Positions 6,837-62,132 are shown, counted from the stretch's first letter. The stretch is DNA of 64,000 nt from Nitrospirota bacterium (GCA_040756135.1 JBFLZS010000006.1:16173-80172), one strand, 5' to 3'. Made by a program: numbers and translations. Notes: a model not told the origin generated them from the sequence alone.

Positions 6837-7040
6837 TAGTGTCTGTCCATAAATTATGATTTAAGTAGGCTGTCATTCCCCGACTTGATCGGGGAATCCA
6901 CCCTTCGGCAGGCTCAGGGTGACAATGTCATCCTGAGCTTGTCGAAGGATGTCGAACCATGGATTGTCTGGTCAAGCGTTCGACTGAGCTCACGCCGAAG
7001 GCCGGACAATGACAGAAACCGATTTTATAAACAGTCTCAA
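6837..7040. mobile_element. Nested palindromic MITE-like element (shell plus GTCATT double hairpin plus inner CTTCGAC/GCTCAG hairpins)
   Basis: Outer IR TAGTGTCTGTCCATAAA / TTTATAAACAGTCTCAA; inner TGTCATTCCCCGACTTGATCGGGGAATCC ... GGATTGTC..GACAATGACA; further hairpins at 6900-6960 and 6977-7001. Confidence 0.75.
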
Positions 7041-7041
7041 C

Positions 7042-7365
7042 TTATACCCTTTTGCTATAAAGGTCTTCAGATATTTCTTTCATCTTTTCGACCATATTAA
7101 TAAATTCCTCAGGTGGTATCTGCCTGACTAAATTCCCTTCAGAGTCCACAATCCTGATAACCACATTCTTGTTATCGTCAATTGCAAAAAATGCCTTATA
7201 AGACTCTGCTTCAGGTGCCTTGACAGCCTCGGACTGAACAAAAACTGGTTCGGCCTTTTGTTCAACAGGACTGCCGGCATCTACTGCCCTCTTAACATTT
7301 TCAGGCTTTTTATTAAAGATCTGTGAAGTAAGTGGTAACCCTATGTCTATTCCCTTTATTTCCAT
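7042..7365 (-). CDS. flaG: FlaG family protein
   Basis: FAIDDNKNVVIRIVDSEGNLVRQIPPEE motif; located between fliC and fliD. Confidence 0.88.
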   Translation of the reverse strand: MEIKGIDIGLPLTSQIFNKKPENVKRAVDAGSPVEQKAEPVFVQSEAVKAPEAESYKAFFAIDDNKNVVIRIVDSEGNLVRQIPPEEFINMVEKMKEISEDLYSKRV

Positions 7366-7374
7366 CTTACTTTA

Positions 7375-7404
7375 AAAAGGGGCGGGAAATACCCCACCCC
7401 TTTT
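7375..7404 (-). terminator. Intrinsic terminator/attenuator hairpin after fliC
   Basis: Minus strand AAAAGGGGTGGGG-TATTT-CCCGCCCCTTTTT just after the fliC stop. Confidence 0.6.
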
Positions 7405-7422
7405 CCCCTTTTTGAGCCTTCT

Positions 7423-8913
7423 TTATCCGCCTCCAAGAAGTGCAAGGACATTCTGTGGCAACAGATTAGCCTGTGCAAGCATAGATATACCTGCCTGCTG
7501 TATTATCTGCAACCTTGTGAAGTTAGCAGTTTCAACAGCATAGTCTGCATCCATGATCCTTGACCTTGCAGAGATAACATTCTCACGTACATTTTCAAGG
7601 TTTGCGATGGTTGAAGTCAGCCTGTTCATAACAGCCCCAAACTCTCCCTTTCTTGATGTGAGTGTATCCAGGGCCTTCTTGGCTGCCAGCATGGTAACAT
7701 TGGCATTACCAACATCTGAAACCGTAACAGCATTCACAGAGGTTGCTGTAAGGGAAATGGTTGTGCTTGTTGTCGCATAGCCGAGCGCGCCGGATGTGTC
7801 ATTACTGTTAGTAGTCGCAGTGCTTGTAGTCAGGTCATCATTCAGGATTATCATACCGTTCTGGCCGGCAGAGACAGATACTGAAGAAGCAAAGCCCGCT
7901 GCAAATGATGAGCCACCTGAAGGTATTTGTGCAGCATCTACACTAACACTTACGCCTGCGCCTGTGGTATTTGCAAGCACTATCCTGTTATCCGAATTTA
8001 CGAGCGCTGTAACACCTGTTTCAGAAGTCTTTGCATTAATAGCAGATGCTAAGTTAGCTGCTGCTGTCGCTATGACGGTTGCTGCGGTAAATGAACCGAT
8101 TGCAATGCTGTTAATAGTTATATATCCTGAGTTAACTACTGTGGAAGCTGAAGCGGCTGCAACAGCAGAGCTGCCAACCATTGCATTACCAAAAGCAAAG
8201 GCTGTGACACCTGTTGAACCGGTGTACAAGTTAAGACGGTTTATTATGTTAACGCTGTTGTTCTGATAATCCGAACCTGTTGTAATGGCGCTGCCAAGGC
8301 CTACGCCATTCAGTGTTGCAGCGTCTGCTAACCCACCGCTGTTGAATATCCTTGAGGCCGCAACAGCCACATCAGTAGCTGTAAGGGAAGAGCTGTAGGT
8401 CGTGGAAACACCCATGCTTGTTGGTGCTACATTGGATGAGGATATGCTGATAGTCTCATTCACCTCAACGCCAACCTGGACAGTAACGGTCTTGATCTGG
8501 TTGAGGAACAGCTCACCATTGTATCTTGTCTGTGAAACTATCCTGTTCAGCTCTGCAACAAGCTGTCTGACCTCATCGTTCATAGAGCCTCTGTCAGTTG
8601 ATGTGTTATAGCTTGATGCCTGGTTCGCCAGTTCGTATATCCTCTGAAGGCCGTTAATCATCTCATCCATGGCGCCTTCTGCTGTCTGGGCAAAGGAAAC
8701 ACCATCATTGGCATTCCTCATTGCAACAGATAGACCATTGACCTGTGTGGTCATCCTTGTGGCAATGGCAAGGCCTGCAGCGTCATCCTTTGCTGAGTTG
8801 ATTCTTAAGCCCGAAGACAACCTCTGTATAGCTGTATTAAGAGGGCCTTCGGTTTTTCTCAGACTTCTCTGAGTATTAAGTGAAACTAAATTAGTGTTGA
8901 TTACGAGACCCAT
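7423..8913 (-). CDS. fliC: Flagellin
   Basis: INTN, RLSSGLRINSAKDDAAGLAI, SRIMDADYA and QQAGISMLAQAN motifs; Ser/Thr/Ala-rich variable region. Confidence 0.99.
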   Translation of the reverse strand: MGLVINTNLVSLNTQRSLRKTEGPLNTAIQRLSSGLRINSAKDDAAGLAIATRMTTQVNGLSVAMRNANDGVSFAQTAEGAMDEMINGLQRIYELANQASSYNTSTDRGSMNDEVRQLVAELNRIVSQTRYNGELFLNQIKTVTVQVGVEVNETISISSSNVAPTSMGVSTTYSSSLTATDVAVAASRIFNSGGLADAATLNGVGLGSAITTGSDYQNNSVNIINRLNLYTGSTGVTAFAFGNAMVGSSAVAAASASTVVNSGYITINSIAIGSFTAATVIATAAANLASAINAKTSETGVTALVNSDNRIVLANTTGAGVSVSVDAAQIPSGGSSFAAGFASSVSVSAGQNGMIILNDDLTTSTATTNSNDTSGALGYATTSTTISLTATSVNAVTVSDVGNANVTMLAAKKALDTLTSRKGEFGAVMNRLTSTIANLENVRENVISARSRIMDADYAVETANFTRLQIIQQAGISMLAQANLLPQNVLALLGGG

Positions 8914-8981
8914 TTTCCTTTCCTCCTTGAAATTCAGTGTTAGTGTTTAGTGTCAGTTCACTGTTCACTGCTCACTGTCTT

Positions 8982-8997
8982 TAGGCTTCCATGCCTA
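8982..8997 (-). promoter_or_regulatory. Putative CsrA-binding hairpin in the fliC leader
   Basis: mRNA UAGGC-AUGGAA-GCCUA (ANGGA in loop); further GGA motifs overlap the SD (CAAGGAGGAAAGGAAAAUG); csrA and fliW are present in the window. Confidence 0.65.
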
Positions 8998-9115
8998 TTT
9001 TCATTCTCTGCAGGCTCTACGAATCGTAGACTAATGCCTGCGGTACAAACTGGTTTAGGTCTTTTTGACACTCCCCTCCTTTCTGACCATCACCTCTTTA
9101 AGCTTTCAGATATTC

Positions 9116-9143
9116 TTATCGGAAGTTTTTAAAAAAAACTTTA
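9116..9143 (-). promoter_or_regulatory. Sigma28 (FliA) promoter of fliC
   Basis: TAAAGTTT...TCCGATAA (TAAA-N16-TCCGATAA), ~200 nt upstream of the fliC ATG. Confidence 0.8.
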
Positions 9144-9164
9144 ATTTAATACAAACGCATTAAA

Positions 9165-9300
9165 TAAAATCTGTCCATAAATTCAGTTTGCCTGTCATTC
9201 CTGCGGAAGCAGGAATCCAGAACCTATTGAAAACACTGGATTCCCGCATTCGCGGGAATGACGCATTTGAGTTGAAATCGGCATTTATACACAGACCTTA
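9165..9300. mobile_element. TA-flanked palindromic element (GTCATTCC cargo) between divergent sigma28 promoters
   Basis: Shell TAAAATCTGTCCATAAA / TTTATACACAGACCTTA; cargo TGTCATTCCTGCGGAAGCAGGAATCC...GGATTCCCGCATTCGCGGGAATGAC. Confidence 0.75.
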
Positions 9301-9313
9301 CTTAGGAAAAACC

Positions 9314-9341
9314 TAAAGTTTTTATCATAAATAGCCGACAA
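9314..9341 (+). promoter_or_regulatory. Sigma28-like promoter of the signalling operon
   Basis: TAAAGTTT...GCCGACAA (TAAA-N16-GCCGACAA), ~110 nt upstream of 9451. Confidence 0.7.
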
Positions 9342-9450
9342 ATAAAAAATAGAGGCTCTTGCAAAAATGGCAATAGTCAAGAGGGAAGGTTATTGTTCAA
9401 GCTATAGATGTTCTTGATTTTGAGATTATTAGAGCAAATATGGATTAGAA

Positions 9451-11523: not shown

Positions 11524-11525
11524 TT

Positions 11526-12344: not shown

Positions 12345-12345
12345 G

Positions 12346-13644: not shown

Positions 13645-13668
13645 GATAATTATTTAATAGGTATTTAT

Positions 13669-19365: not shown

Positions 19366-21489
19366 TCAAACCTTTAATAAATCTCCTGCAAAATTAATAA
19401 AATCTTCATCTTTCGGAAACTTTCCTACCCATTTGGCAAAGAATTTAACCCTGTTTTTCCAGTTTTCATCAGAGACGTCCTCTCCAAAAAATGTCTCTTT
19501 ATAATTAAATGCAAGGCAATCAGGAAGATATCTGACCTTGATATTCAATTCTTTTGCCTTAAGACATATGTCAGGTTCTATCAGATGGTTGGCTATTTCT
19601 TCATCAAACCGTCCGATGGATTCGAATATTTTGCGGCTCATGGCAATAAACCCTCCGCCTACTGCATCCCTGTAGTTTTCATCTGAAAATCCCCCCATCC
19701 CCCCTTTACCAAAGGGGGGTGAGGGGGGATTATTTTCATTTCCCTTTGCGTCTCTTTGAGACATGAATGTTTCATTGTCTGTGTTCTGTGCTCTATACTC
19801 TATGTTCTGTATTTTATACGGCGTAAAATTGAAATCATACCCGATTCCAAGGCAGTAAGGAGTCATATCAGGATTCTTTAGCGGTAGACCAGCCACGCTG
19901 TTTTCAATTCCGTCAAGCAGGCCCTCATCCTTGAAATAGACTATGCCAGGCCTCAAAAAGATAAGGTATTCGCCTGATGCTGCCTCAGCCCCTTTGTTAT
20001 ATAGCAATGAAAGATTGTGTCCCTCTGCATCGACAATCTGCATATCACCTGAGATACCGGAAAGCATCCCCTTTATATTTTCATCATTTACTACAATCAC
20101 TACCTCCCAGTCAGGATATTTGACATTTTGGGATAAGGAAGTAAGAGTTGCAAGAAGCACTTCAGCATCGTCCCCTGATGGGATAATAAAACTTACCCGT
20201 CCTGAGATATGCTCTTTGCTCTTTGCCCTTTGCTCTTTGCCCCTTGTCCCTTGCCCCTTGCCCCTTGCAGGCTGGCGGCTTTCGAATATATATTTCATTA
20301 TATCTATTGCCCTTTCTATAGCCTTGCCATCAAGTCTATAAAATGATTTTCGGAGGTATTCCTTAATATTGTTCCCGATATGAGGCGGCACCCCTTCTTC
20401 AATTGTTCTATAAAGATTTGCCCAATTTCCAAGGGGCGACACAGATTGCGCTACTCCCATATCAACATAGTAGTCTTTAGTACCGTCCCTGCTCGGTAAT
20501 GCAAAAAGAGGCCTTCCAAAGGCAAGTGATTCAAGGGCAAGGGTGGTTTTACCGAGGGTGACACAGTAGTCAGCAATAGCAAGGAGGCTGTATGGATCAT
20601 ATGTATAAAGCATAATGGATTCCGGTGAAAGATCCTTTATTATTCCCTCTGCCTTTTGATATGTCCCTAATAATGCATTGGGATGCCATTTAAATATAAA
20701 TATTATTTCGTTATTTGTACCTTTAAAGAACTCGAACCATACCCTTTTGTCTATAACTGCTGCCCATTCAAGATCTAATAATACTACAACAATCTTTTTC
20801 CCCGCAGGTATTCCAAGCTCTTCCGTTACCCTTTTCTTATTTAATGGATTAGAATATGTTTTAATTGCATTGTCAAGATGGGTATTGCCTATAAATATCA
20901 GCTTGTCAATAGCACTTTTATGGCTGCCGAGCATATCCCTCGAGGCCTCTCCCCAGATAAGGTCGGCAGTTGAGTATTCTGTATGGGCGCTAAAACTCAA
21001 CCTGCTTTCATGATAATCCCCTTCCTGAAAAGTTACATAAGGAATCCCATATTTAGCTGCAAGATGTCCTGTCAGTTTACCCCACCTGTTTCTTTCGTGG
21101 AGGGCAATAAACAGATCAGGCAACTCCTTTTCAATAAACCTTTCCAGACAGAAATATTCCTCAATTGCAGCGTTAAAAAATCTGCTCTGCTCAAAAAGCG
21201 ACCAGTGACGGAATCCATCCCATTTAAAGCATCTCGATTTCCAGATATCAAGCAGCCGGGACAATGTGCTGTCTATTTTTTCCGCCGTAACATTGTCCAT
21301 ATAGTCAGTGAGATATCTAAACTTCTGGCCATTTTTAATCAGATCTCTTTCAAAAGGGTAATCGGCCATTGTAAGAAAGAATATCACTTCGGCCCCCCTT
21401 TTCCTGGCCTCTAATGCAACAGGCATCAGAAATTTTGTATGATGGGGCAGTGCTATTAAACAGGCGATCCTTTTCCTTTTCAGATTCAT
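19366..21489 (-). CDS. Bifunctional glycosyltransferase (N-terminal GT-B-like plus C-terminal GT2) with repeat-derived inserts
   Basis: IGNTHLD, KWHP, TLALESLAFGRP; VSFIIPS, YPDWEVVIV, NKGA, IGRFDEE. Confidence 0.75.
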   Translation of the reverse strand: MNLKRKRIACLIALPHHTKFLMPVALEARKRGAEVIFFLTMADYPFERDLIKNGQKFRYLTDYMDNVTAEKIDSTLSRLLDIWKSRCFKWDGFRHWSLFEQSRFFNAAIEEYFCLERFIEKELPDLFIALHERNRWGKLTGHLAAKYGIPYVTFQEGDYHESRLSFSAHTEYSTADLIWGEASRDMLGSHKSAIDKLIFIGNTHLDNAIKTYSNPLNKKRVTEELGIPAGKKIVVVLLDLEWAAVIDKRVWFEFFKGTNNEIIFIFKWHPNALLGTYQKAEGIIKDLSPESIMLYTYDPYSLLAIADYCVTLGKTTLALESLAFGRPLFALPSRDGTKDYYVDMGVAQSVSPLGNWANLYRTIEEGVPPHIGNNIKEYLRKSFYRLDGKAIERAIDIMKYIFESRQPARGKGQGTRGKEQRAKSKEHISGRVSFIIPSGDDAEVLLATLTSLSQNVKYPDWEVVIVVNDENIKGMLSGISGDMQIVDAEGHNLSLLYNKGAEAASGEYLIFLRPGIVYFKDEGLLDGIENSVAGLPLKNPDMTPYCLGIGYDFNFTPYKIQNIEYRAQNTDNETFMSQRDAKGNENNPPSPPFGKGGMGGFSDENYRDAVGGGFIAMSRKIFESIGRFDEEIANHLIEPDICLKAKELNIKVRYLPDCLAFNYKETFFGEDVSDENWKNRVKFFAKWVGKFPKDEDFINFAGDLLKV
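19677..19775. mobile_element. In-frame CCCCT-type composite element bounded by TTTCAT direct repeats
   Basis: 93-bp spacing between the TTTCAT copies; related copies at 39384-39494 and 57776-57887 share the CCTTTGnGTCTCTTTGAGACATGAATGTTTCATT tail. Confidence 0.75.
20211..20268. repeat. Heptamer tandem array inside the GT linker
   Basis: (GCTCTTT/GCCCCTT)n, encoding ARGKGQGTRGKEQRAKSKE. Confidence 0.75.
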
Positions 21490-24960: not shown

Positions 24961-25123
24961 TATAGTATGTTCATAAACTAACTTTTGCTCTTTGTCATTC
25001 CGGCAGTCTCCCTGCTTACAATCTGCAGGGACTGGCTTAAGCCGGAATCCAGTGTTTTCAAAAGGTTCTGGATTCCTGCCTCCGCAGGAATGACAAGAAA
25101 CCTGACTTTATGGACAGACACTG
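24961..25123. mobile_element. Palindromic element (GTCATTCC cargo) whose right arm supplies the stop codon of the adjacent gene
   Basis: TATAGTATGTTCATAAA / TTTATGGACAGACACT; the right arm is the exact reverse complement of 6838-6853. Confidence 0.78.
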
Positions 25124-39178: not shown

Positions 39179-39271
39179 GTCATTCTCCGGCTTGACCGGA
39201 GAATCCAGTTTCTTCCTCTGGATTGCCCGATCAAGCCTGCCCTCGACTGCGATCGGGGGTCGGGCAATGAC
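39179..39271. repeat. GTCATT-type double hairpin with a 24-bp insert
   Basis: Nearly identical to 44244-44312 except for the insert at 39236-39259 after TCAAG. Confidence 0.8.
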
Positions 39272-39383
39272 GATTGTCGGATAACAATATTTATGCAACG
39301 TTTAGGTTAATATTTGGCTTCCAAACAAATTGACGATTTGTAAAATTAACTGTCATAAAATTGACTTCTATATTCTCATTCAC

Positions 39384-39494
39384 TTTCACCTGAAAATACC
39401 TCAAATCCCCCCTAACCCCCCTTTTCTAAAGGGGGGAGGGGGGATTACAAATTTTTATCATCCTTTGAGTCTCTTTGAGACATGAATGTTTCAT
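39384..39494. mobile_element. CCCCT-type composite element
   Basis: AATCCCCCCTAACCCCCCTTTTCTAAAGGGGGG..GGGATT plus the GTCTCTTTGAGACATGAATGTTTCAT tail. Confidence 0.78.
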
Positions 39495-39533
39495 TTGAAA
39501 TGTCGCTGCAAGGGGTGAGACTGCATCGCCTGA

Positions 39534-44173: not shown

Positions 44174-44203
44174 ATCCTTATCGGGATTTGATTCCTGACT
44201 TAC

Positions 44204-44341
44204 TAAGGAGTTCATAAGTAAAACCACATGCGATGCAAATTTTGTCATTCTCCGGCTTGACCGGAGAATCCAGTTTCTTTCTCTGGATTGCCCGATCAAG
44301 TCGGGCAATGACGATTATGTGGCCTTCTTATGGTCTTATTA
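44204..44341. mobile_element. Shell element with GTCATT cargo, providing the flgJ stop
   Basis: Left arm TAAGGAGTTCATAAGTAA (exact reverse complement at 62115-62132); right arm TTCTTATGGTCTTATTA contains the flgJ TAA. Confidence 0.75.
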
Positions 44342-44639
44342 GTATGCCTTCTGTTTTTTCAACAAGTCTACTTATACCTTTAAGTAAGGTATCTTGCAGT
44401 CCAAACCCCCTTTCGGCAAACAGTCTTGCAAGTTCCATGTCGAACAAACTCATGTATGTGTCTCTTCCCAGTCCGTCTTCTGATTCCGTGTTCGTTGTCT
44501 TCCTCATTGCTTTGATAAGTTCATATGCGAAGAGGGCCTCCATCTCCTTTGTAACAGCCTTTATGGCCTCGGGGTCATTCCTTCCCCTGTATTCTTCAAT
44601 ATTACGATGATAGTTGTAAATGCTATGTTGAATTTTCAA
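44328..44639 (-). CDS. flgJ: FlgJ rod-binding domain protein (no muramidase)
   Basis: EMEALF..LIKAMRKT, Y.SLFD.ELA, GFGL; follows flgI; TTG start. Confidence 0.85.
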   Translation of the reverse strand: MKIQHSIYNYHRNIEEYRGRNDPEAIKAVTKEMEALFAYELIKAMRKTTNTESEDGLGRDTYMSLFDMELARLFAERGFGLQDTLLKGISRLVEKTEGILIRP

Positions 44640-44661
44640 TTAAAATACCTCAAATTGTTTA

Positions 44662-44755
44662 TAGTAATCTCCCCTAACCCCTCTTTAAAAAAGAGGGGAA
44701 TATTTGAGTTCTTAAAAGTCCCCCTTTAATAAAGGGGGATAGAGGGGGATTACTA
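44662..44755. repeat. CCCCT-type double palindrome between flgI and flgJ
   Basis: TAGTAATCTCCCCTAACCCCTCTTT..AAAGAGGGG..CCCCCTTT..AAAGGGGGATAGAGGGGGATTACTA. Confidence 0.75.
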
Positions 44756-44762
44756 AATTTCA

Positions 44763-45950
44763 TTATATAATCTCCAGTTCAGCTTTCAGTGCTCCTGATG
44801 CCTTTAATGCCTGAAGGATAGAAATTATGTCTCTGGGAGTTACACCCAGAACATTTAAGCCCTTCACTATCTCTCCGAGTGTGACGCCTGAGACCTGGAT
44901 AAGTGATGCTTTTTGTTCCTTTACAGTAACCTCTTTTTTCGGAACTACTACGGTTTCAGCCTTTTCAGGTGCAAAAGGCGGCGGTTGAGAAACCTCATAC
45001 TCTGTCTTAATCTCGATTGTGAGGTTCCCATGAGCAATAGCAACAGGAGAAATCCTGACCTTATCTCCGATAACAACTGTCCCGGTCCTTTCGTTTATCA
45101 CAACAATTGCTGGCACATCAACAGATACATCAATCCCCTCTACAAGTGTTATAAATTCAACAATCCTGTTCGAATATTCTGGAGGTATCCGCAACTTAAC
45201 GGCAGAGGGGTCTATGGTTGAGGCATAATTGGAGTTTAATTCTTCATTTATTTTCTTTACAATACCTGCAGCAGTAGTAAAATCAGGCCTTTTTAAGAAT
45301 ATCTTTATTTCATTCCCGCTGCCGAGGACAAAAGGGACATCCTTTTCTATAATGACACCCTCCGGGATTTTCCCTGTCGTCGGGTGGTTCTTTTGAATGG
45401 TTGTGCCCCCTCCACCTCCCACGAAACCACCGATAGAGACAGGACCCTGAGCAAGGGCATATACCTTGCCATCAGGGCCCTTTAAGGGGGTGAGAAGGAG
45501 GGTGCCACCTTGGAGACTCTTAGCATCTCCAAGAGTTGATACCAGGGCATCGATCCTGGTACCAGGCTTGGGGAAAGGAGGCAGTTTTGATGTAATCATC
45601 ACTGAAGCAGTATTTTTAGCCTTTATATCATTTGGTTCAACTGTTAAACCCATTCTCTGGAGCATATTTGCGATACTCTGCATGGTAGCAAGACCTTTAT
45701 CTCCTGAACCATCAAGGCCTACGACAAGACCGTATCCGATAAGCTGATTCTCTCTCACCCCTTCGAAAGTAGCAATATCCTTTATCCTCTCAGCACGAAC
45801 AACAGTAGACAGTAAACAGTGAATAGTGAATAGTAGAAAGACAGTAATAACTAATGAGTAACAAATCCCCCCACGCCCCCCTTTGCTAAAGGGGGGTAAG
45901 GGGGGATTTGACTTTTGACTTTTGACTTTTGACTTATTTAGAATGGCCAT
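44763..45950 (-). CDS. flgI: Flagellar P-ring protein FlgI (signal peptide built from repeats)
   Basis: RIKD, NQLIGYGLVVGLDG, GDAKSLQGG.LL.TPL, NERTGTVV, LQALK.SGAL.AEL. Confidence 0.97.
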   Translation of the reverse strand: MAILNKSKVKSQKSNPPLPPFSKGGRGGICYSLVITVFLLFTIHCLLSTVVRAERIKDIATFEGVRENQLIGYGLVVGLDGSGDKGLATMQSIANMLQRMGLTVEPNDIKAKNTASVMITSKLPPFPKPGTRIDALVSTLGDAKSLQGGTLLLTPLKGPDGKVYALAQGPVSIGGFVGGGGGTTIQKNHPTTGKIPEGVIIEKDVPFVLGSGNEIKIFLKRPDFTTAAGIVKKINEELNSNYASTIDPSAVKLRIPPEYSNRIVEFITLVEGIDVSVDVPAIVVINERTGTVVIGDKVRISPVAIAHGNLTIEIKTEYEVSQPPPFAPEKAETVVVPKKEVTVKEQKASLIQVSGVTLGEIVKGLNVLGVTPRDIISILQALKASGALKAELEII

Positions 45951-46676: not shown

Positions 46677-47528
46677 TTATAGCCCCACCTTGATAGTATT
46701 CTCATTTATGAGAAGTCCTTTGACTATTTTTTTGGAGGCAAGATTTATCGCTTTTACAAGCTTACCAACAGTGCTGTCTTCTTTCATTTCACCGATTGCG
46801 GCGATCTTTAAACCTTCGGACTCAACTAAAAGAGTTACTCTTTGTCCTTTTTTCACCACGGATGTTTCACTTACCATGCCTGAACTCAGTGGCATATTCG
46901 CAATGATTGAACGCAGCAAAGGTTTTCCTATAACCTTCTCAATATCTTTGTCTTTTAAGGCGCCATTCGGTATCTTTCGAACATCCATAAGCACCGTATA
47001 CACATCATCTTCCTGAAGATAATAGCCCTTTTTGAATGCCCTTCTGCTTACGAGGATATGATCGTATGCCTTGATATTGGCAGTTGCTGTTATTTTCTTG
47101 CCATCTTCAAACTCCAGAACAAAGATTGTCTTTCCAGGAGGAGACTTTTTTATCATAATCTTCTCAATTTGTTTTCCGGGCATTTCGTTATTCACAGTAA
47201 GGTTATTTATATCGATCTCAGACCATGGATAATTGTTTCTGAGATATTCTTTCAGCACATCTTCAATACCCTGAGAAGAGGAAAATGCAATAGGAACAGA
47301 AAAAAACGATGCTGAAACCAATATGACAAGAACTGAGGATATTATTACCCAAATTGAGCGATTTTTTCGTGTCATTCCAAGCCCTTCGCTCTTTGTCATT
47401 CCGAGCGAAGCGAGGAATCTTACTGCTTTCTGATAAAGATTCCTCACACCCTTCGGGTGTTCGGAATGACAAATAAAACAAGACTTTTTGATAGAATCGC
47501 TCAATCTAGGTATTAAGATTTTGTTCAT
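46677..47528 (-). CDS. flgA: P-ring assembly chaperone FlgA (55-codon element in the signal peptide)
   Basis: SAF-like region, VKKGQRV, I.A.GE, VKAINLASKKIV; located between flgG and flgH. Confidence 0.88.
   Translation of the reverse strand: MNKILIPRLSDSIKKSCFICHSEHPKGVRNLYQKAVRFLASLGMTKSEGLGMTRKNRSIWVIISSVLVILVSASFFSVPIAFSSSQGIEDVLKEYLRNNYPWSEIDINNLTVNNEMPGKQIEKIMIKKSPPGKTIFVLEFEDGKKITATANIKAYDHILVSRRAFKKGYYLQEDDVYTVLMDVRKIPNGALKDKDIEKVIGKPLLRSIIANMPLSSGMVSETSVVKKGQRVTLLVESEGLKIAAIGEMKEDSTVGKLVKAINLASKKIVKGLLINENTIKVGL
47346..47512. mobile_element. TA-flanked composite palindromic element in frame in flgA
   Basis: IR TACCCAAATTGAGCGATT / AATCGCTCAATCTAGGTA; GTCATTCCGAGCGAAGCGAGGAATCT...AGATTCC..GGAATGACA cargo; TA-to-TA distance 165 bp. 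Confidence 0.85.
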
Positions 47529-49065: not shown

Positions 49066-49119
49066 GTTTTTTTAAAATAATTGAAGTCAAATAATTCCCA
49101 TGAAATAGACATTAACCTG

Positions 49120-49228
49120 AAAATCTCCCCTAACCCCTCTTTGCCAAAGAGGGGTTTACACACCCCTACACCCCTCTCAAGAGGGGATTATTCCTCCCTT
49201 TAGCAAAGGGAGGTTAGGAGGGATTTTA
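49120..49228. repeat. Triple-hairpin CCCCT composite
   Basis: Near reverse complement of 61992-62100. Confidence 0.8.
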
Positions 49229-49285
49229 TAAATATATGTAGTCATTATTATAAGACTGTTAATAAAAAGAGAAGTAATAGGAGAA

Positions 49286-49457
49286 AATGCCTATTGACTC
49301 TATTCACCTGATTATCTTTAAACTTATATTTCATCTCGTTCGGCAATTAGTCGCATTTCTTTCTTCTGTCATTGCGGCTTGTCCGCAATCCTTCTTTAAA
49401 GAAAGATTCCCGACAAGCGGGAATGACAAACAGTAGTGAGCAGAGTCAACAAGCATT
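49286..49457. mobile_element. Shell element with GTCATT cargo
   Basis: IR AATGCCTATTGACTCTATTCAC / GTGAGCAGAGTCAACAAGCATT enclosing TGTCATTGCGG..GGGAATGACA. Confidence 0.7.
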
Positions 49458-50013: not shown

Positions 50014-50048
50014 ATCCCCCTCTTACAAATAATTGTATCATCAAAACT

Positions 50049-50134
50049 AACCACAGAGAACATAAAGAATTTCACCACAGAGCACACAGAGAAAAAGATT
50101 TTTAAATTTAAAAAACTCTGTGTTCTCTGTGGTT
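50049..50134. repeat. ACCACAGAG-type inverted repeat
   Basis: AACCACAGAGAAC..ACCACAGAGCACACAGAG ... CTCTGTGTTCTCTGTGGTT. Confidence 0.7.
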
Positions 50135-50591
50135 GGTTTTGATAAGTGGTGAAATTCTTTCATAGGTATTTTTAAACAGAGTAATAATTTTGACACTTTT
50201 CAGACTCATTATCGCTATAGCCTGTGTAATAGTGTCAATATTTTGACGAACTCTATATAATGCTGAACTTACAGCCTTTAATACAAACATATTAAGTAAA
50301 GTGTCATGCTGAACCCTGAAAGTGTCATTCTGCGTTTGTATTAGTATTCCCGTTATACAGATGCTTTGAATAAGTTTCTTCATTCCAGAACCACCAATAA
50401 TCAAAAAAGCAAGGATTATGCCTATGGTTTATATTTTATATTAAACTTCACTGCTGTCCAAAATAACCTATAAAGTTCATCCATTAGATATTAACATCTC
50501 GATTTTAATAATTTTTGTACAGATCCATCACAATTTTTTGAATTCAGGTTGCCTCTTTTTACCAATGTTGTCAAGAATGACTACTTCTTTC

Positions 50592-50675
50592 GTCATTCCA
50601 GCGAAAGCTGGAATCCATGCGCATAACAATTAGAAAATGCAGAAAATACTGGATTCCTGCCTCCGCAGGAATGAC
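50592..50675. repeat. GTCATTCC double hairpin, within a looser TGCTGTCCAAAA shell (50453-50755)
   Basis: GTCATTCCAGCGAAAGCTGGAATCC ... GGATTCCTGCCTCCGCAGGAATGACA; the right arm is identical to that near 25070-25095. Confidence 0.75.
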
Positions 50676-50766
50676 ACCTTAAAAGTCAAATTTTATTTTT
50701 TATTCCTTTTCTATTTTCTATATGCTGTCCAAGAAATCTTATTTTTGGACAAGCATGATTACAATT

Positions 50767-54912: not shown

Positions 54913-54932
54913 AGAAAAAAAGCAATTCAAAA

Positions 54933-57032
54933 TTAACTCTGCCCGTTAATTTCGCTCCAGAGGATGCTGCGATTTCTTCCTGTTCTCTTTGCGTGATACA
55001 ATGCCTTATCAGCCCTTTCAATAAGTTCCTCTTTTCTTTTACCATCATCAGGGCATGTAGATATCCCGATGCTGACAGTAACCCTAAAGGTTTTATTTTC
55101 AGCAGAAAACGTTTTATCCATCACGGCCTTTCTTAACCTCTCCGCCATATTCAACGCACCGCGTGCTCCTGTGTTCAAAAGGATTACCGCAAACTCTTCA
55201 CCACCATACCTGGCAGAGATATCAATATTTCTTATGGTTTTTTTGATCACATCTGCAACAGCCTTAAGCACCGAGTCCCCTACCGGATGACCATAGGTGT
55301 CATTTATATCTTTAAAGTTGTCTATATCTAAAATAAGTATTGACAGGGGCTCAGAGAACCTCTCAAGGCGACTGAATTCCTGTGATAGTCTTTCCTGGAA
55401 GTGTCTGTGGTTGAAGATGCCTGTAAGCCCGTCTGTTATGGCCAGCCTTTCTATCTCCGCATGAAATCTTGCATTTGCAATGGATGTTGACGCCTGATTA
55501 CCTAAGACCTCGAGAAGCTCGATCTGGTAAGGGTTTAATGCATTCGTTTTCTCTGAAAGGAATGTAAGTATGCCTAAGAGATCCTTCTCATAAAGCAGTG
55601 GCAGTGCAAAGACAGAGCCTATATTATCTGTTTTGAAAGGCATGATTGGAGCACGATAATCTCTAACATCGGAAAGATAGAAAGGCTCCTTATTTTTCAC
55701 TACTATATCGAGTAAAGTGCCCTTAAGATTAAAAACCTTCTTCTCACGAGGTGGCAGTCCTATCTGATGTAATATCTCGAATTCCTTCCCTTTTGCCATA
55801 AAGAAGATAATCTCTGAGGCTACAATCCTATATGCACCTTCTATCAAGCTTTGTACTATAACATCCACATCGAGTGATGTGAGCAGTTTTGAACTCTCTT
55901 CATTCAAAACCTTCAAAGTGGTATAAGAACGATATATCTGTGGATAGACACGTTCTCTACGGAGTATCCTCATAATCTGTTTTGAGAACATCTGAAGTGT
56001 ATCGCTATCAGCAGTGGTGAATGCATGAAACCTCGCACTGTCAGCAACCACAACGCCGAGCGGGAAGTTACCATCCATCACAGGCACTGCAACTAAAGAA
56101 GAAAACTTGTCTTTCTTTAGATAGCCAACGTCAATTTTTTTTCTACCTATATCGGATAAAATAAGAGGTTTTTTATCTTTAATGCAGAAATATATAAGAC
56201 CCTCATCCGAAGGTATGATGCCGTCTGATTCCTCTGTGGAACATCTCAATCTCAGGCTACCACCTGAACTCACGAAGAGATTTACAGAATCAGCGAATAT
56301 AATATTTTTTGCAACCATGAGGAGTTCTTTAATCTCCTCATCTGGTCTAAACATAGATCCAAGATAATGAGATATACCCTTTTCATCACTAAAAGACTTT
56401 ATCTCATCTAATCCCGCCGTCCCTTCTTTAAAATCCCCCTTTAGTCCTCCTTTAATAAATAATCCCACCTCACCCCCCTTTAGTAAAGGGGGGATGGGGG
56501 GATTATCTCTTTGCAAAAAAGGGGTAGGGGATTTGTTTGTTTTTTTCATCTTGTCTTTAAGGAACAAAGATAGGATTGCAGTTGAGGCAAGAAATACAAT
56601 AAATGTTATTTCTTCAATGAGTTTTTCTCCATTCATAAAATTACTCAGCTCAAGAAAAGGGATTAATAGCAATAGAGAGACTATGGTTTTTAGTCCATAG
56701 AATGCTGTTAGATATAAAATAAACGGGAAATAGACCATTCTGAGCCAGGGTATGGCAAATGCCTGTGCTGAACCTGCAATGAGCATCAGGAGAGAGAAGA
56801 GGAATTCAATAGAATAGTTCTTATCTTTTCTTAATATATAGAGGATGACATAGAGAAAAATTGTAGAAGAACTGAAGAGGAACCAGAGGCCCCTTCTCTT
56901 TAAAGGAAATTCCAAGAGCAGTCCAAGATAGGTGAGAAAGAGAAGTAAAAAAGGGATGCCCCTTTTTAACCAGAGGCCCTGCCTCTTTTTACCTCCTCTT
57001 CCTTGAAGAATTTCCTGTACAGGATTTCCCAC
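54933..57032 (-). CDS. Membrane-bound GAF-GAF-GGDEF diguanylate cyclase
   Basis: N-terminal TM helices, two GAF domains, TDGLTG..N, RYGGEEF; start uncertain. Confidence 0.9.
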   Translation of the reverse strand: MGNPVQEILQGRGGKKRQGLWLKRGIPFLLLFLTYLGLLLEFPLKRRGLWFLFSSSTIFLYVILYILRKDKNYSIEFLFSLLMLIAGSAQAFAIPWLRMVYFPFILYLTAFYGLKTIVSLLLLIPFLELSNFMNGEKLIEEITFIVFLASTAILSLFLKDKMKKTNKSPTPFLQRDNPPIPPLLKGGEVGLFIKGGLKGDFKEGTAGLDEIKSFSDEKGISHYLGSMFRPDEEIKELLMVAKNIIFADSVNLFVSSGGSLRLRCSTEESDGIIPSDEGLIYFCIKDKKPLILSDIGRKKIDVGYLKKDKFSSLVAVPVMDGNFPLGVVVADSARFHAFTTADSDTLQMFSKQIMRILRRERVYPQIYRSYTTLKVLNEESSKLLTSLDVDVIVQSLIEGAYRIVASEIIFFMAKGKEFEILHQIGLPPREKKVFNLKGTLLDIVVKNKEPFYLSDVRDYRAPIMPFKTDNIGSVFALPLLYEKDLLGILTFLSEKTNALNPYQIELLEVLGNQASTSIANARFHAEIERLAITDGLTGIFNHRHFQERLSQEFSRLERFSEPLSILILDIDNFKDINDTYGHPVGDSVLKAVADVIKKTIRNIDISARYGGEEFAVILLNTGARGALNMAERLRKAVMDKTFSAENKTFRVTVSIGISTCPDDGKRKEELIERADKALYHAKRTGRNRSILWSEINGQS
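56430..56535. repeat. Nested CCCCT palindromes in frame in the DGC linker
   Basis: Encodes KSPTPFLQRDNPPIPPLLKGGEVGLFIKGGLKGDF. Confidence 0.75.
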
Positions 57033-57528: not shown

Positions 57529-57529
57529 C

Positions 57530-57754
57530 CTATTTTTCCGCAAAGGCAAGCAATGCTATATTCCTTGCCCGCTTTATAGACTCGGTCAGTTCTCTCTGAT
57601 GTCTTGCACAGGTACCTGTCATCCTTCCGGGAAGTATCTTTCCCCGCTCAGTAAGATAGCTCTTGAGGACCTTGATATTTTTATAATCTATGTACTCTAT
57701 CTTTTCAGAACAGAACCTGCAAAACTTTCTTCTCTGAAATCTCTTCTGTTGCAA
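57530..57754 (-). CDS. rpsR: 30S ribosomal protein S18 (Zn-binding form)
   Basis: [31 protein letters not shown]. Confidence 0.98.
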
Positions 57755-57775
57755 GTTAACTCCCTTCTCTCAAAT

Positions 57776-57887
57776 TTTTACCTAAAAATACTCAAATCCC
57801 CCCTAACCCCCCTTTTCTAAAGGGGGGTTAGGGGGGATTACAAATTTTCATCGTCCTTTGTGTCTCTTTGAGACATGAATGTTTCAT
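57776..57887. mobile_element. CCCCT-type composite element between ssb and rpsR
   Basis: Near-identical to 39384-39494. Confidence 0.8.
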
Positions 57888-57890
57888 TTT

Positions 57891-58298
57891 TCAAAACGGC
57901 TCTAAATCTGTAGTTTCCTCAGGTGGAACAATATCGCCTTCCCCCATTGAGGTGTCCACATCAGCGGATTGGCTAACTCCCCTCCTTGAAAGGAACCTTA
58001 CAGATTGCGCAATGACCTCAAACTTACTCCTTTGCTGTCCATTAGATTCCCATCTTCTTTCCTGGAGTCTGCCCTCAACAAGCACTGAACTTCCTTTGTT
58101 AAGATATTTACTGCATGATTCTGCCTGTTTCCCGAAAACCACATTATCTATAAACATTGTCTCCTGCTTCATCTCATCAGACTGTTTATACCTGTAGTTT
58201 ACCGCAAGCCTGAAAGAGGCCACAGGCGTACCTTGTGGGGTATACCTCAGTTCGGGATCTTTTGTAAGGTTGCCTATGAGTATTATTTTGTTGTACAT
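57891..58298 (-). CDS. ssb: Single-stranded DNA-binding protein
   Basis: NK..LIGNLTKDPELRYT, KGS.V.VEGRL, acidic tail ending PF. Confidence 0.97.
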   Translation of the reverse strand: MYNKIILIGNLTKDPELRYTPQGTPVASFRLAVNYRYKQSDEMKQETMFIDNVVFGKQAESCSKYLNKGSSVLVEGRLQERRWESNGQQRSKFEVIAQSVRFLSRRGVSQSADVDTSMGEGDIVPPEETTDLEPF

Positions 58299-58652
58299 CT
58301 AAACTTCGCTCTTCTGCTCCGCAGGCTCTGAAACAGCCTCAAACTTTTCAAGATCATGTACCTGTTTAGTGCTGAGCTTTAGGATTATATATTTTAGTAC
58401 AGCGTCAAAGACTTTGTAGAATCCCTCTATCTTTTTGATACTCGCAGGTGGTATCTTATAATATAAAAGCACATATAAACCCTTTTTCTGTTTATTAATC
58501 TCGTAAGCAAGCTTTTTCCTTCCCCAGATGTTTACCTTAAGTACCTCTCCCCCTTGACCTGCAATAAGTTCTTTAATCTTTGTAATGGCTGCTTCAGCTT
58601 CTTCATCACTAAGTGTCGCATTTAGAATAACGATATTTTCATATACATTCAT
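58299..58652 (-). CDS. rpsF: 30S ribosomal protein S6
   Basis: YE..VI, WGRKKLAYEINK..G.Y. Confidence 0.97.
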   Translation of the reverse strand: MNVYENIVILNATLSDEEAEAAITKIKELIAGQGGEVLKVNIWGRKKLAYEINKQKKGLYVLLYYKIPPASIKKIEGFYKVFDAVLKYIILKLSTKQVHDLEKFEAVSEPAEQKSEV

Positions 58653-58852
58653 TCAACATATCTCCTCGGAACGTTGATTAATAAATCTACGTTCCTTGTT
58701 GTTATTTTCAGCCCTTTCTAAGGAAAAGAAACTTTGTTTTTATAACATACCATACAAAATAAAATCAACTCATTTGCAAAGTAATATTCAACATTTTTTG
58801 CTTTTTTATCAACATCTTTGCATTTCCAAAAAAACTCTTGAACCTATGGTAT

Positions 58853-60094
58853 CTAACTTTTCAAATCCGAAACTTCATTGCGCAGCCACCACAAAAGCCA
58901 CAATCCTGGCAGGGCAGTGAGAAAGGTTATAAAAAAGAAACCAGGCCAGCCTATTGATTCAACCAGATAGCCAGATGTGGGAGCTATAAAAATCCGGCCG
59001 AGAGCAGCAAGGGATGATAGCAGTGCATATTGTGTTGCGGTGTAGCGATGATTGCACATTGCCATAAGGAGTGATACGAAGGCTGCGGTGCCCATGCCAC
59101 CGGCCATGTTTTCAAAGGCGACTGCAAAAACCAACATCCCATAACTTTTACCCATCCATGCTAAAAACATAAATGACAGATTGGACACCGCCTGTAATAC
59201 GCCAAAACCCAGCAAGGAACGAAAAAGTCCAAGCCGTACCATCAAGGTGCCACCAAAAATCGCACCTACAATCAGTGAGGCAAAACCGAGCCCCTTATTT
59301 ATAGTACCTACCTCGCTTACAGAAAAACCTATCCCTCTGATAAGAAACGCAGTGGTCAGGGTACCTGCATAGGCATCTCCTAATTTATAGAGCACTATTA
59401 AAAATAACAATGTTATGGCAGAGTTTCGTTTAAAGTAATTCTCTAAAGGTCCCAATACAGCCTCTTGAAGGCTATGCGGAGGAACTATTCCCCCTTCTGG
59501 TTCAGATCCCAGAAGTATTGATATTATTCCTACTGCCATTACACTGGCCATTAATAAATATGTATTTTGCCAACCGATATGATCAGATAAAATAAGTGCC
59601 AGTGCACCCGAAACAAGCATTGCGATGCGATAGCCCATGACAAACACTGCAGCCCCTACTCCTCGTTCCCGTTCATGTAAAACATCAGTGCGGTATGCGT
59701 CAATCACTATATCCTGAGAGGCAGAGGTGAAGGCAACTATCAGGGCAAGAACAGCTACTATCAGGGGAAGTTGCTGTGGGGAACTGAAGGCCATCGCAGA
59801 GATACCAAGAATAAGACAGAGTTGGGTAATGATTATCCAGCCACGGCGTCTTCCGAGCCAGGGAGGCACAAAACGATCCATAAGCGGTGACCATAAGAAC
59901 TTAAGCGTATATGGTAATCCTACAAGTGCGAATATTCCGATTGTACGAATATCAACGCCAGCTACAGTCATCCATGCCTGTAAAGTTCCACCGGTCAACG
60001 CTAAAGGGATACCCGAGGAAAAGCCAAGAAATGTTATAACAGCAATACTCCTGCTTCGGAATACCTGAAGATAATGGGAAATATCAAGTTTCAT
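58853..60094 (-). CDS. ampG: Muropeptide MFS permease AmpG
   Basis: LGFSSGIP, KFLWSP..D, GRRRGW, SASQDIVIDAYR, ATQYALLSS. Confidence 0.95.
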   Translation of the reverse strand: MKLDISHYLQVFRSRSIAVITFLGFSSGIPLALTGGTLQAWMTVAGVDIRTIGIFALVGLPYTLKFLWSPLMDRFVPPWLGRRRGWIIITQLCLILGISAMAFSSPQQLPLIVAVLALIVAFTSASQDIVIDAYRTDVLHERERGVGAAVFVMGYRIAMLVSGALALILSDHIGWQNTYLLMASVMAVGIISILLGSEPEGGIVPPHSLQEAVLGPLENYFKRNSAITLLFLIVLYKLGDAYAGTLTTAFLIRGIGFSVSEVGTINKGLGFASLIVGAIFGGTLMVRLGLFRSLLGFGVLQAVSNLSFMFLAWMGKSYGMLVFAVAFENMAGGMGTAAFVSLLMAMCNHRYTATQYALLSSLAALGRIFIAPTSGYLVESIGWPGFFFITFLTALPGLWLLWWLRNEVSDLKS

Positions 60095-60150
60095 ATTATT
60101 TATTAGTATCCTGGGGAAAATATAAATTGTCGATAGTCGATATTGACACT

Positions 60151-60255
60151 AAAATACCCCTCTTTGGCAAAGAGGGGTGAGGGGAGATTTTATGAATTAT
60201 AAATGTAACCATTTATTCTTAAAATCCCCCTTCATCCCCCTTTTCCAAAGGGGGA
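60151..60255. repeat. CCCCT-type palindromes between nagZ and ampG
   Basis: CCCCTCTTTGGCAAAGAGGGG..GGGGAGATTTT and AAAATCCCCC..CCCCCTTTTCCAAAGGGGG. Confidence 0.72.
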
Positions 60256-60323
60256 GTGCATGACCTTTTTATAATCCTTTGTACTGACATGTAGGTTTTA
60301 TAACAAACCTTGCATAATTCGGG

Positions 60324-61910
60324 TTAAAGGTTCAGTCTAACAGGAAGCCGGCCTTTAAAATCTTCTTCTCCCATTAAACACTTTATGACAGCCTTTTGTG
60401 CCTGCTCTGTCGCATCGTATGCAGCAACAAGAATATCAGCCGCATTAAAATCGCGTAAAACGTAGGGGCTTCCAAAGGAGATGACAATGGAATTTTTCGC
60501 ATCTTTGATAAGTTCATTAATCCGATCCTTTTCATTCCCCGAACTCCCCTTCCACGCAGCTATGCTTGTAAATATGGCAAATGTAACTGTGCCATCTAAC
60601 GATCGCAACCTATCCTCCTTTAAAATCCCCTCTTGCCCCCCTTTTCCAAAGGGGGGTGAGGGGGGATTTGAGTCATTAATTATAGAGACGTCCTTGAAAT
60701 AACTCCTGAAAGGGGATGAATCAAAAAATTTATCGTCACCTGCAAGTACGACATGAATCTTGCTTTCATCTAAAATTGGCAGTAGACCAGGTGTACTTTT
60801 TACAAGTGTTACAGACATAGCAGTAACTTGTGATGAAAGCATTTTGTGCCTTTGATAATCAATCTTACCTCCCTTTAATTCCCCCCTTTCTAAGGTGGTA
60901 GTTGTATTTAGAAGGTTTACCTTTGTCTTTAAAATTCGCTTTACTGCTGCATCTATCTGTTCCCGGGCAATATCTTTTGATTCAACTGCGTATAGTATTT
61001 CCTTAACGGTCAGATCAACATTCAAAGGGTGCAACAATATATCAGCCCCTGCCTTTATGCATTTTACGGGGACATCTTCGATGTTTTTCAGGGCATTCAT
61101 ATTCAGGGCATCAGTTAGTATTAGACCATCAAATCTTAGCTTTTCCCTCAATATGCCGGTAATTATCTTCCCTGACAAGCTTGCAGGTTTATAATCAATG
61201 GCCGGGATACTCAGATGTCCAATCATGATACTGCTGACCCCGGTATTAATAGCCTCTTTAAATGGCAATATATCTACACTCATTAAATCATCATAAGATT
61301 TATCTATAACGGGAAGTGAGATATGGGAATCTATGGCTGTGTCTCCATGTCCTGGAAAATGCTTGGCACAGCTTATGAGTCCTGAATTCTCTAAAATTCC
61401 TATATATTGTGAGCCAAACCATGCCACATCTTCGGGATCGTCAGAGAATGCCCTCGTACAGATAATCGGGTTATCAGGATTTAGATTTACATCCAGAACG
61501 GGGATGAGGGGCATATTTATTCCTATATCCTTCACTTCATCTGCTATAGCCTTTATTGCATACTGGAGGATTGAAACATCTTCAGGTCTATCTTTATCAA
61601 TTGCTGCTGCCAGAGCCATCTGGCATGGGAATATGGTGCTATCCTTTATTTGCTGTCCCACCCCATGTTCGATGTCCGATGCAATAAAAAGGGGTATCTT
61701 TGATATTGACTGGATTTTATTAATAAAATACTTTATTTCGTCTTTTTTACCACCAAAGACTATAAATCCACCGATACCCTTTTTTACGAGTTCGAAAATC
61801 TTTTCCTGATAAGACCCCGAATGGATACCCTCTCCATCAAGCCTGCCTATAATCAATTGATATATTTTTTTTTCTAAAGTATTTGGGGCAGGTATATAAT
61901 TAGTTGGCAT
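60324..61910 (-). CDS. nagZ: Beta-N-acetylglucosaminidase GH3 (NagZ) with C-terminal domain
   Basis: D.E.G, PVLDVN..P.NP.I..R.F, KHFPGHGDTAIDSH, TDAL, G.LPV; start uncertain (track start 61964 lies in a repeat arm). Confidence 0.9.
   Translation of the reverse strand: MPTNYIPAPNTLEKKIYQLIIGRLDGEGIHSGSYQEKIFELVKKGIGGFIVFGGKKDEIKYFINKIQSISKIPLFIASDIEHGVGQQIKDSTIFPCQMALAAAIDKDRPEDVSILQYAIKAIADEVKDIGINMPLIPVLDVNLNPDNPIICTRAFSDDPEDVAWFGSQYIGILENSGLISCAKHFPGHGDTAIDSHISLPVIDKSYDDLMSVDILPFKEAINTGVSSIMIGHLSIPAIDYKPASLSGKIITGILREKLRFDGLILTDALNMNALKNIEDVPVKCIKAGADILLHPLNVDLTVKEILYAVESKDIAREQIDAAVKRILKTKVNLLNTTTTLERGELKGGKIDYQRHKMLSSQVTAMSVTLVKSTPGLLPILDESKIHVVLAGDDKFFDSSPFRSYFKDVSIINDSNPPSPPFGKGGQEGILKEDRLRSLDGTVTFAIFTSIAAWKGSSGNEKDRINELIKDAKNSIVISFGSPYVLRDFNAADILVAAYDATEQAQKAVIKCLMGEEDFKGRLPVRLNL
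60622..60669. repeat. In-frame CCCCT palindrome in nagZ
   Basis: Encodes SNPPSPPFGKGGQEGI; a second remnant near 60866-60900 encodes LERGELKGG. Confidence 0.75.
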
Positions 61911-61952
61911 GGGAAAGTTTATCAAATCACTGTCTATAGAAACAACAGCTAT

Positions 61953-62132
61953 TAATAAAGTCATAAGTATAAATATAAAGACATTGATTACAAAATCCCT
62001 CCTAACCTCCCTTTGCCAAAGGGAGGGAAAGTCCCCTCTTGAGAGGGGTGCAGGGGTGTGTAATTCCCCTCTTTGACAAAGAGGGGCGAGGGGAGATTTT
62101 TCAATAATAAGGCATTACTTATGAACTCCTTA
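61953..62132. mobile_element. Shell element with triple CCCCT hairpin cargo
   Basis: Arms TAATAAAGTCATAAGTA / TTACTTATGAACTCCTTA; cargo is a near reverse complement of 49120-49228. Confidence 0.78.

Follow-up and report, generated by a model that had tools for sequence, protein, structure and literature searches.

Mosaic repeats of a Nitrospirota genome pair MITE ends with NTS/SRM-type hairpins

A 64,000-nucleotide (nt) stretch of DNA from a Nitrospirota bacterium (GCA_040756135.1, contig JBFLZS010000006.1; G000:C6:16173-80172 in our numbering), here called the window, carries short palindromic elements in which inverted terminal arms (the shell) enclose hairpins (the cargo); feature positions count from the window's first letter. 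We judge, at a probability of about 0.7, that these elements are nested composites of separate, already known selfish-DNA systems and not one new system. [quoted passage not shown] SRM stands for 'Ssn-related motif', a term that, among the papers listed, occurs only in PMC11893778. A second hairpin type (type 2) would occupy the centre or the loops of the first, with CCCCT palindromes as an alternative filling.

The host assembly (G000) comprises 3.51 Mb in 172 contigs with 40% G+C, is 98.6% complete, and was compared with 40 related genomes from 39 genera. Repeat regions built from 14-mers present at least five times number 1228 and cover 135,493 bases, 21 of them falling in the window. An earlier note on the window had proposed a combinatorial shell-and-cargo system at seven places, and the strings it quoted are all present at their positions. 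When these seven elements were searched by BLAST against the genome, the outer arms were ~14–30 hits deep and the inner hairpin modules reached 100–235 hits. Five of the seven, the main elements, have recognizable paired arms, some of them degenerate or shortened (e.g., 7024–7040 and 24963–24977), and sit between long open reading frames (ORFs):

6837–7040: arm B composite; left arm 6837–6853, degenerate right arm 7024–7040 (2 mismatches); inside, an NTS/SRM-type hairpin (6872–6899), a type-2 hairpin doublet (~6899–6955), and an inverted hairpin (6963–7013) with a 25-nt loop insert
9165–9300: arm B shell; arms 9165–9181 and 9284–9300 around a hairpin doublet, GTCATTCCTGCGGAAGCAGGAATCC at 9194–9218 and its inverted partner at 9238–9262, with a short centre
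24961–25123: arm B shell; shortened left arm 24963–24977, intact right arm 25107–25123; hairpins 24994–25050 (insert in loop) and 25070–25094
44201–44344: arm A shell; TA, 140-bp element 44203–44342, TA; left arm 44201–44221, diverged right arm ~44322–44344, GTCATT hairpin doublet 44244–44312
61950–62135: arm A shell; TA, 182-bp element 61952–62133, TA; three CCCCT-type G/C-rich palindromes at 62009–62027, ~62033–62047, and 62066–62086

The claim that one arm borders several cargo classes is borne out: TAAGGAGTTCATAAGTAA lies at 44204–44221 beside GTCATT hairpins, and its exact reverse complement lies at 62115–62132 beside CCCCT palindromes. Likewise, AGTGTCTGTCCATAAA at 6838–6853 recurs inverted at 25107–25122. 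The remaining two places, 47346–47512 and 49286–49457, had been taken for further arm types and are instead single-copy (BLAST coverage 1), private inverted repeats around hairpin doublets. Two arms also touch coding sequence: a minus-strand ORF ending at 25108 takes its stop codon from the arm B right arm 25107–25123, and the ATG of the ORF 60324–61964 falls in a diverged arm A (61952–61964, CATAAG read backwards).

Shell ends and their transposases

Arm B, TAGWGTCTGTSYATAAA, has 99 + 98 genome hits at no more than 1 mismatch, and arm A, CTAAGGAGTTCATAAGTAA, has 21 + 27 at no more than 2, compared with 0 + 0 for either reversed pattern; the resulting totals of 197 and 48 far exceed chance. 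Two arm B variants, searched with up to 2 mismatches, give 229 hits, which resolve into 84 inverted pairs 97–318 bp apart and 61 unpaired copies. The flanks read ...TAnnT/AGWGTCTG ... CAGACWCT/AnnTA..., that is, a 6-bp TANNTA on either side, a pattern that fits the left flank in 60/84 pairs and the right flank in 64/84. The two flanking 6-mers are identical in 45 of the 84 pairs, compared with a mean of 10.5 and a maximum of 21 in 1000 trials with shuffled pairing. Where the central NN is not self-complementary, its two copies form a direct repeat 46 times and an inverted one 3 times. There are seven pairs of abutting arm B elements, their arms separated by 6 nt at most; in the examples inspected, a single 6-mer copy is common to both elements.

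Arm B occurs in 21 of the 24 genomes of the same family among the 40 relatives. The related genomes G001 and G023 hold arm B pairs 1627–1628 bp apart, revealing a 1.63-kb element in two related genera. One such element (L007, G001:C1:680740-682566) contains a 457-aa ORF scoring 368.8 bits on the NCBIfam model NF033593 (ISNCY family transposase, cut-off 325) and also matching Pfam DDE_Tnp_1. Its sole terminal inverted repeat is arm B, and TAATTA stands outside both ends; the flanks of L008, TAAATA and TATTTA, are not a direct repeat. The MITE halves keep homology to both ends of the ISNCY element for about ten bases beyond the arm. Arm B elements are MITEs of an ISNCY-family insertion sequence that duplicates a 6-bp TANNTA target. 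Duplications of 6–7 bp characterize the ISDol1 group in ISfinder. No transposase was found beside the unpaired arm B copies on C20 and C70, nor where contig C22 ends. The full-length ISNCY element L007 contains a GTC-headed hairpin, GTCCCGGCAGTGCCGGCAC, some 50 nt in from its left end, and this hairpin is reminiscent of cargo type GTCATTCCGGCAG.

TA duplication had been expected for the shells in general. It fits the flanks of arm A, where TA precedes 45/48 arms and stands on both sides of 31/35 paired elements, although TA may belong to the end itself; arm B duplicates TANNTA instead. The commonest arm A element length is 144 bp (15 copies). The search for an autonomous arm A element was unsuccessful, and the long arm A pairs in relatives enclose no transposase: those in G007 and G006 hold ordinary genes. 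In G022, the arm A copies with which some contigs begin are MITEs truncated by assembly. Both were rejected as autonomous elements. An IS630 / Tc1-mariner-like source of arm A was also considered and discarded, since the IS630-like fragments that terminate contigs C11 and C35 of G000 have ends unlike arm A. These IS630-like transposase fragments (C11:5-794 and C35:10-225, with ends ...CCGTTACTATA) lie at contig starts and are probably one multi-copy element broken by assembly.

A third end, arm D (AACCYAAATGTTGCATAAAA; 14 hits, 0 in the control), matches the ends, in the form ACCnAnnnGTTGCATAAA, of a complete IS1380-family element in the same genome (C40:8160-9695), whose transposase scores 233 bits on NF033539 (cut-off 180). 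By this match, arm D is an IS1380-family end whose full element resides in G000. It abuts GTCATTGCCCGA hairpins at no fewer than six places, at least one of them in the window (39289–39303). An arm B MITE of G023 (L009) contains an IS1380 element, and one G000 element, C50:13028-13201, pairs an arm A end with an arm B end. Repeated flanks beyond these, designated C, A', E, F, and G, also occur. As regards the statement that the window lacks a transposase, PF01797, PF01609, and NF033545, the families searched, have no match on contig C6.

Hairpin cargo and its nuclease genes

Within the repeat regions, the trinucleotide 5' of the hairpins is GTC 544 times, and the 3' trinucleotide is CCA (counted as TGG) 409 times. 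The 544 GTC-headed units comprise 144 distinct hairpin sequences, and 520 oriented units follow the order GTC, A-stem, loop, stem-T, C(C). Stem pairing was assessed in 198 units (23 distinct sequences) chosen by flanks and loop alone, regardless of pairing. Among those 23, pairing at the three variable stem positions reaches 96, 87, and 96%, compared with 38, 49, and 62% with shuffled partners, and each position shows several Watson–Crick pair types; the stems are compensatory.

This layout is that of a known hairpin. In Neisseria, the NTS is a 28-nt sequence, CGTCATTCCCGCGMAVGCGGGAATCYRG, described as a longer form of dRS3, and is bound by SsnA, a 94-aa GIY-YIG protein that cuts upstream of it in single-stranded DNA only (Chenal 2025, PMC11893778). 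According to the same paper, 'Ssn-related motifs' flank ssn homologues in many phyla. The published SRM pattern has 155 sites in G000 and 7 in the reversed genome, and at least 23 G000 units fit the dRS3 consensus ATTCCC-N8-GGGAAT. A cross-species scan with the hairpin, one genome per species, returned at least 119 matching stretches. Among the matches listed, which cover 80 loci in many phyla, 93 of 103 have at least three further complementary pairs, and Neisseria lactamica carries an identical hairpin; the genes beside these 80 loci share no common family.

Five related genomes (G018, G003, G022, G038, and G039) contain small GIY-YIG genes, encoding 94–119 aa, with outward-facing GTCATTCC hairpins:

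Hairpin on both sides of the gene: G018 L253, L257, L260, and L262; G022 L259; G038 L258; G039 L246 and L250
Hairpin on one side, with 150 nt displayed: G003 L244; G022 L256; G038 L245, L261, L264, L269, and L271

Three of the four bracketed loci in G018 encode the same 97-aa protein, and several of the five one-sided loci in G038 are broken. A different GIY-YIG gene (G038 L249) is flanked by a second hairpin type, GTCATGGTGAGCCTGTCGAACCATG (GTCA-NNNN-GAGCYTGTCGA-NNNN-TG). A PDB sequence search with the small GIY-YIG proteins returned UPF0213 proteins only. The GTCATT cargo is a hairpin of the NTS/SRM kind, linked in relatives to genes for GIY-YIG nucleases.

Several further loci were observed around such genes. 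G018 L253, L257, and L260 share an identical 150-nt upstream stretch, and AAAAATTGGGGGAACTT precedes the left hairpin and also follows the right one, so the repeated ssn unit may be larger than hairpin–gene–hairpin. L247 (G018:C20) and L248 (G022:C209) are small GIY-YIG genes in or beside tRNA-like sequence, with GGGTAGCTCAG upstream and GGTTCGAATCCC downstream. In G000 itself, a small GIY-YIG gene with no ordinary in-frame start (C60:2639-2797) is bracketed by the inverted repeat CCCGTTAGACCTC / GAGGTCTAACGGG and may represent another nuclease–repeat pair.

The CCCCT palindromes are linked to another gene family. G000 has seven DUF559 matches, and AATCTCCCCTGACCCCTCTTTGCCAAAGAGGGG follows two of these genes (C75:2931-3257 and C29:4-282). 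The same module follows arm A at 62066–62100 and in most other arm A copies with CCCCT cargo. CCCCT palindromes are linked to DUF559 genes. The proposal that shells and cargos depend on different enzymes agrees with these associations: DDE transposases for arms B and D, GIY-YIG proteins of the Ssn type for GTCATT hairpins, and DUF559 for CCCCT palindromes. Mobilization of the hairpins by a nuclease of their own is a proposal of PMC11893778.

The list of elements drawn up earlier names real features, and the window holds more hairpin doublets and G/C palindromes than it contained:

39179–39271: hairpin doublet; second hairpin, 39222–39271, with a loop insert
39289–39303: arm D (IS1380-type end), on the right side only of doublet 39179–39271
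39383–39496: G6/C6 palindrome, then the repeated GAAACATTCATGTCTCAAAGAGAC module (arm F); copies of the same kind at 57791–57889 and 19677–19776
44642–44757 and 60151–60257: further G/C palindromes
47352–47508: two GTCATTCC hairpins inside the single-copy 11-nt inverted repeat ATTGAGCGATT
49118–49265: CCCCT-type G/C palindrome array; modules identical in kind to those of the arm A element 61950–62135
49368–49427: hairpin doublet of the CTTGT-loop class; outer 'arms' single-copy
50592–50678: hairpin doublet; GTC hairpin, 33-nt spacer, inverted hairpin; flanks show no arm

Palindromes of the G6/C6 type also lie inside long ORFs of a mechanical ORF list (19677–19776, 45860–45935, 56374–56506, and 60617–60672). 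The CACAGAG-rich repeat at 50041–50160 (120 bp) is of another kind: it makes up an extended imperfect palindrome and has no relation to the arms or hairpins described here.

Nesting and competing explanations

The hierarchical arrangement proposed in the earlier note is supported, the layers being shell, hairpin doublet, a second hairpin type at the centre, and inserts in hairpin loops. Each half of the 84 arm B elements runs inward from the arm through a linker to a hairpin (hairpin L in one half, hairpin R in the other), and the two hairpins flank a centre. This centre is a 17-nt sequence in the ~135-bp class and an inverted doublet of type-2 hairpins in the ~168-bp class; the doublet is tandemly expanded in longer copies and found in both orientations between the same halves. 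Some hairpins carry loop inserts of 22–25 nt (e.g., 6963–7013, 24994–25050, and 39222–39271). By cargo, 37 of the 84 hold type 1 only, 32 type 1 and type 2, 5 type 2 only, 5 the CTGAA-stem class, 2 G/C palindromes only, and 1 type 1 with G/C palindromes, with 2 unclassified. In the ~135-bp family (20 copies, median identity 86%, and 13/190 pairs at 95% identity or more), hairpins and arms are better conserved than linkers, and a composite from another genus (G021) is identical at 129/137 positions.

Hairpins and shells are distributed independently. Among the 520 hairpin units, 177 adjoin arm B, 25 adjoin arm A, and 318 adjoin neither. The 50 nt outward of the GTC head are unique in the genome for 120 units, and 20/179 doublets are naked on both sides, as at 50592–50678; the flanks of naked doublets are rich in T ahead of GTC and in A beyond GAC, and they show no duplication. 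The same independence is seen across genomes: hairpins, arm B, and arm A number 135/0/0 in G038, 478/0/0 in G039, and 110/3/13 in G018, compared with 19/72/4 in G023 and 4/17/2 in G001.

From these observations, we propose that palindrome centres and loops were the places where hairpin units entered MITEs and one another, that loaded composites then spread whole through the transposase of the shell, and that recombination among the many hairpins would have added variety. Combinatorial assembly is limited compared with the earlier proposal: arm, linker, and hairpin mostly form fixed lineages, and the composites carry the target duplication as wholes and recur nearly unaltered in other genera. 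By the earlier note's own standard, this counts in part against its proposal. Three hairpin types alone are found beside arm A as well as arm B.

Several results weigh against this account of nested, separately mobile systems. Neither enzyme was traced in G000: the L007 transposase has no match there and is either truly absent or simply unassembled, and the four PF01541 matches include none flanked by GTCATT hairpins, the gene again being absent or unassembled. With neither an ISNCY transposase nor a cognate ssn gene found in the assembly, most G000 copies are probably orphans. Ssn is known to cut single-stranded DNA and not to move repeats (PMC11893778), and the published SRM pattern fits 146/520 hairpin units exactly, leaving 374 outside. 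Given the hairpin in the left end of L007, some hairpins may be native to the ISNCY insertion sequence. No bare shell was found in G000 (0 arm B pairs within 60 nt of each other, and 82/84 with a recognized hairpin class), so cargo entry into an empty shell is inferred. Linker and hairpin also mostly co-segregate: of 14 linker classes with at least three copies, 8 carry one hairpin type and most others close variants, a pattern also compatible with a small number of ancestors that were already loaded, with no repeated loading since. Finally, no pair of filled and empty sites was found for shell or cargo in metagenome and public-run data, and no insertion event was therefore seen directly. In the metagenome scan with the protein encoded at 7423–8913, the best match had 64% identity (partial) or 55% over the full length, and no orthologous intergenic regions were recovered; just one public run contained a small share of the words, with contigs that end at elements and none that spans one. 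These searches count neither for nor against insertion.

The main rival, which we regard as unlikely, holds that only shells are mobile, the hairpins being a passive filling of a few ancestral MITEs or native to insertion-sequence ends, with recombination, gene conversion, and replication slippage among hundreds of similar palindromes generating variety. This explanation stays viable because linkers and hairpins co-segregate and bare shells are lacking. It also accounts for the central doublet in either orientation between the same halves, the tandem expansions of type-2 units, and the GTC hairpin inside the ISNCY left end, and recombination best explains the arm A/arm B hybrid at C50. Variety of this kind has been proposed for the mosaic arrays of Neisseria, where recombination is favoured as its source (PMC1797815). 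The independence of hairpins and shells speaks against it, both in the 120 uniquely flanked units and 20 naked doublets of G000 and in the two relatives that have 135 and 478 hairpins with no arms. Shells with no fewer than three unrelated kinds of end also share one hairpin superfamily, and the hairpins are found across many phyla.

That the hairpins mainly serve the host, as Ssn targets limiting recombination of incoming DNA or in relation to transcription, with their location in MITEs incidental, is improbable. SsnA cutting at the NTS lowers transformation in N. meningitidis (PMC11893778), and both the intergenic position of the elements and the better conservation of hairpins and arms over linkers in the ~135-bp family would suit such a role. 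Against it, a cognate ssn gene was not found in G000, no Rfam family matches anywhere in the window, and hairpins are nested in the loops of other hairpins, which is unexpected for a functional site. Movement of the hairpins as repetitive extragenic palindromic (REP) sequences or REPINs by a REP-associated tyrosine transposase (RAYT; Y1 HUH) is highly improbable despite the REPIN-like doublet layout and six PF01797 matches in G000, as all six loci have other flanks: each gene carries inverted repeats of its own that are of another kind, classic GTAG-headed REPs occur at one, a MITE lies upstream of only one, and none is bracketed by GTCATT hairpins. Among these loci (C62:4536-4862, C41:25682-26008, C35:30009-30338, C75:801-1124, and C38:21562-21780 are Y1- or RAYT-like), the ~310-aa Y1 (IS200-like) transposase genes each have an inverted repeat of the GGGGTCAGRC... 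type, and a 173-aa RAYT-like gene lies with GTAG-headed REPs, GTAGCCGCAGGC.

A more specific reading goes beyond nesting and is, in our estimate, doubtful: NTS/SRM doublets would be mobile, gene-less derivatives of SRM–ssn–SRM units, inserted by an Ssn-type single-strand nuclease without target duplication at palindrome loops and centres, and multiplying also inside MITEs of several unrelated transposase families. If true, hitch-hiking on MITEs would explain hundreds of hairpin copies in genomes without an ssn gene, and it may help to account for the way NTS/dRS3 has expanded in Neisseria, which is so far unexplained.

Comparison with known systems

On the spread of NTS/dRS3-type hairpins, the nuclease paper offers only the likeness of NTS–ssnA–NTS to an insertion sequence (PMC11893778). 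A single bacterial order now offers gene-bearing units, naked doublets, mutually nested doublets, and doublets in MITEs with target duplications, as well as genomes with hairpins and no shells and the reverse. Two questions become testable: whether hairpins move autonomously, and whether they proliferate by riding transposase-driven MITEs. The repeats also matter for annotation, since they make up ~3.9% of the G000 genome and some arms supply neighbouring ORFs with stop or start codons.

Each layer of the composites is of a known kind, and we found no literature, judged by main texts, that describes NTS/SRM hairpins packed into MITEs. The outer layer resembles ISNCY MITEs in having the end repeat of an autonomous element, TANNTA flanks, many non-coding copies, and intergenic placement; the difference lies in the interior, which here consists of hairpin units of another repeat system and not of a deleted insertion-sequence remnant. 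TA is the target duplication of the Correia elements of Neisseria. Arm A elements resemble these elements (mentioned in PMC1797815) in being TA-flanked inverted-repeat units of ~140 bp, but no similarity between the Correia ends and arm A was seen, and the cargo differs.

With the NTS/SRM–Ssn system as presented in PMC11893778, the hairpins share the 5' GTC, the C after the palindrome that gives orientation, and a variable, compensated stem; some G000 copies are identical to the Neisseria form GTCATTCCCGCGCAGGCGGGAATCCAG, and hairpins bracket small GIY-YIG genes in relatives, like NTS–ssnA–NTS. They differ in being mostly gene-less inverted doublets inside MITEs and each other, in a genome where no cognate ssn gene was found. 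The main text of that paper mentions neither MITEs nor the word Nitrospirota, the host group here.

The Neisseria intergenic mosaic elements (NIMEs) are likewise intergenic mosaics built on ATTCCC-N8-GGGAAT hairpins, but dRS3 alternates in them with RS spacers in arrays without transposon ends or target duplications, whereas the units described here are discrete, 120–320 bp long, and delimited by the ends of insertion sequences together with TANNTA or TA repeats (PMC1797815 for NIMEs). REP/REPIN–RAYT systems and bacterial interspersed mosaic elements (BIMEs), which PMC11893778 also discusses, have in common with the present composites inverted doublets with a conserved 5' head, mosaics with other motifs, and, for REP/REPIN–RAYT, the gene of a single-strand-specific enzyme flanked by its own repeats. 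The head is GTC here and not GTAG, and the linked enzyme is a GIY-YIG protein and not a Y1 HUH transposase.

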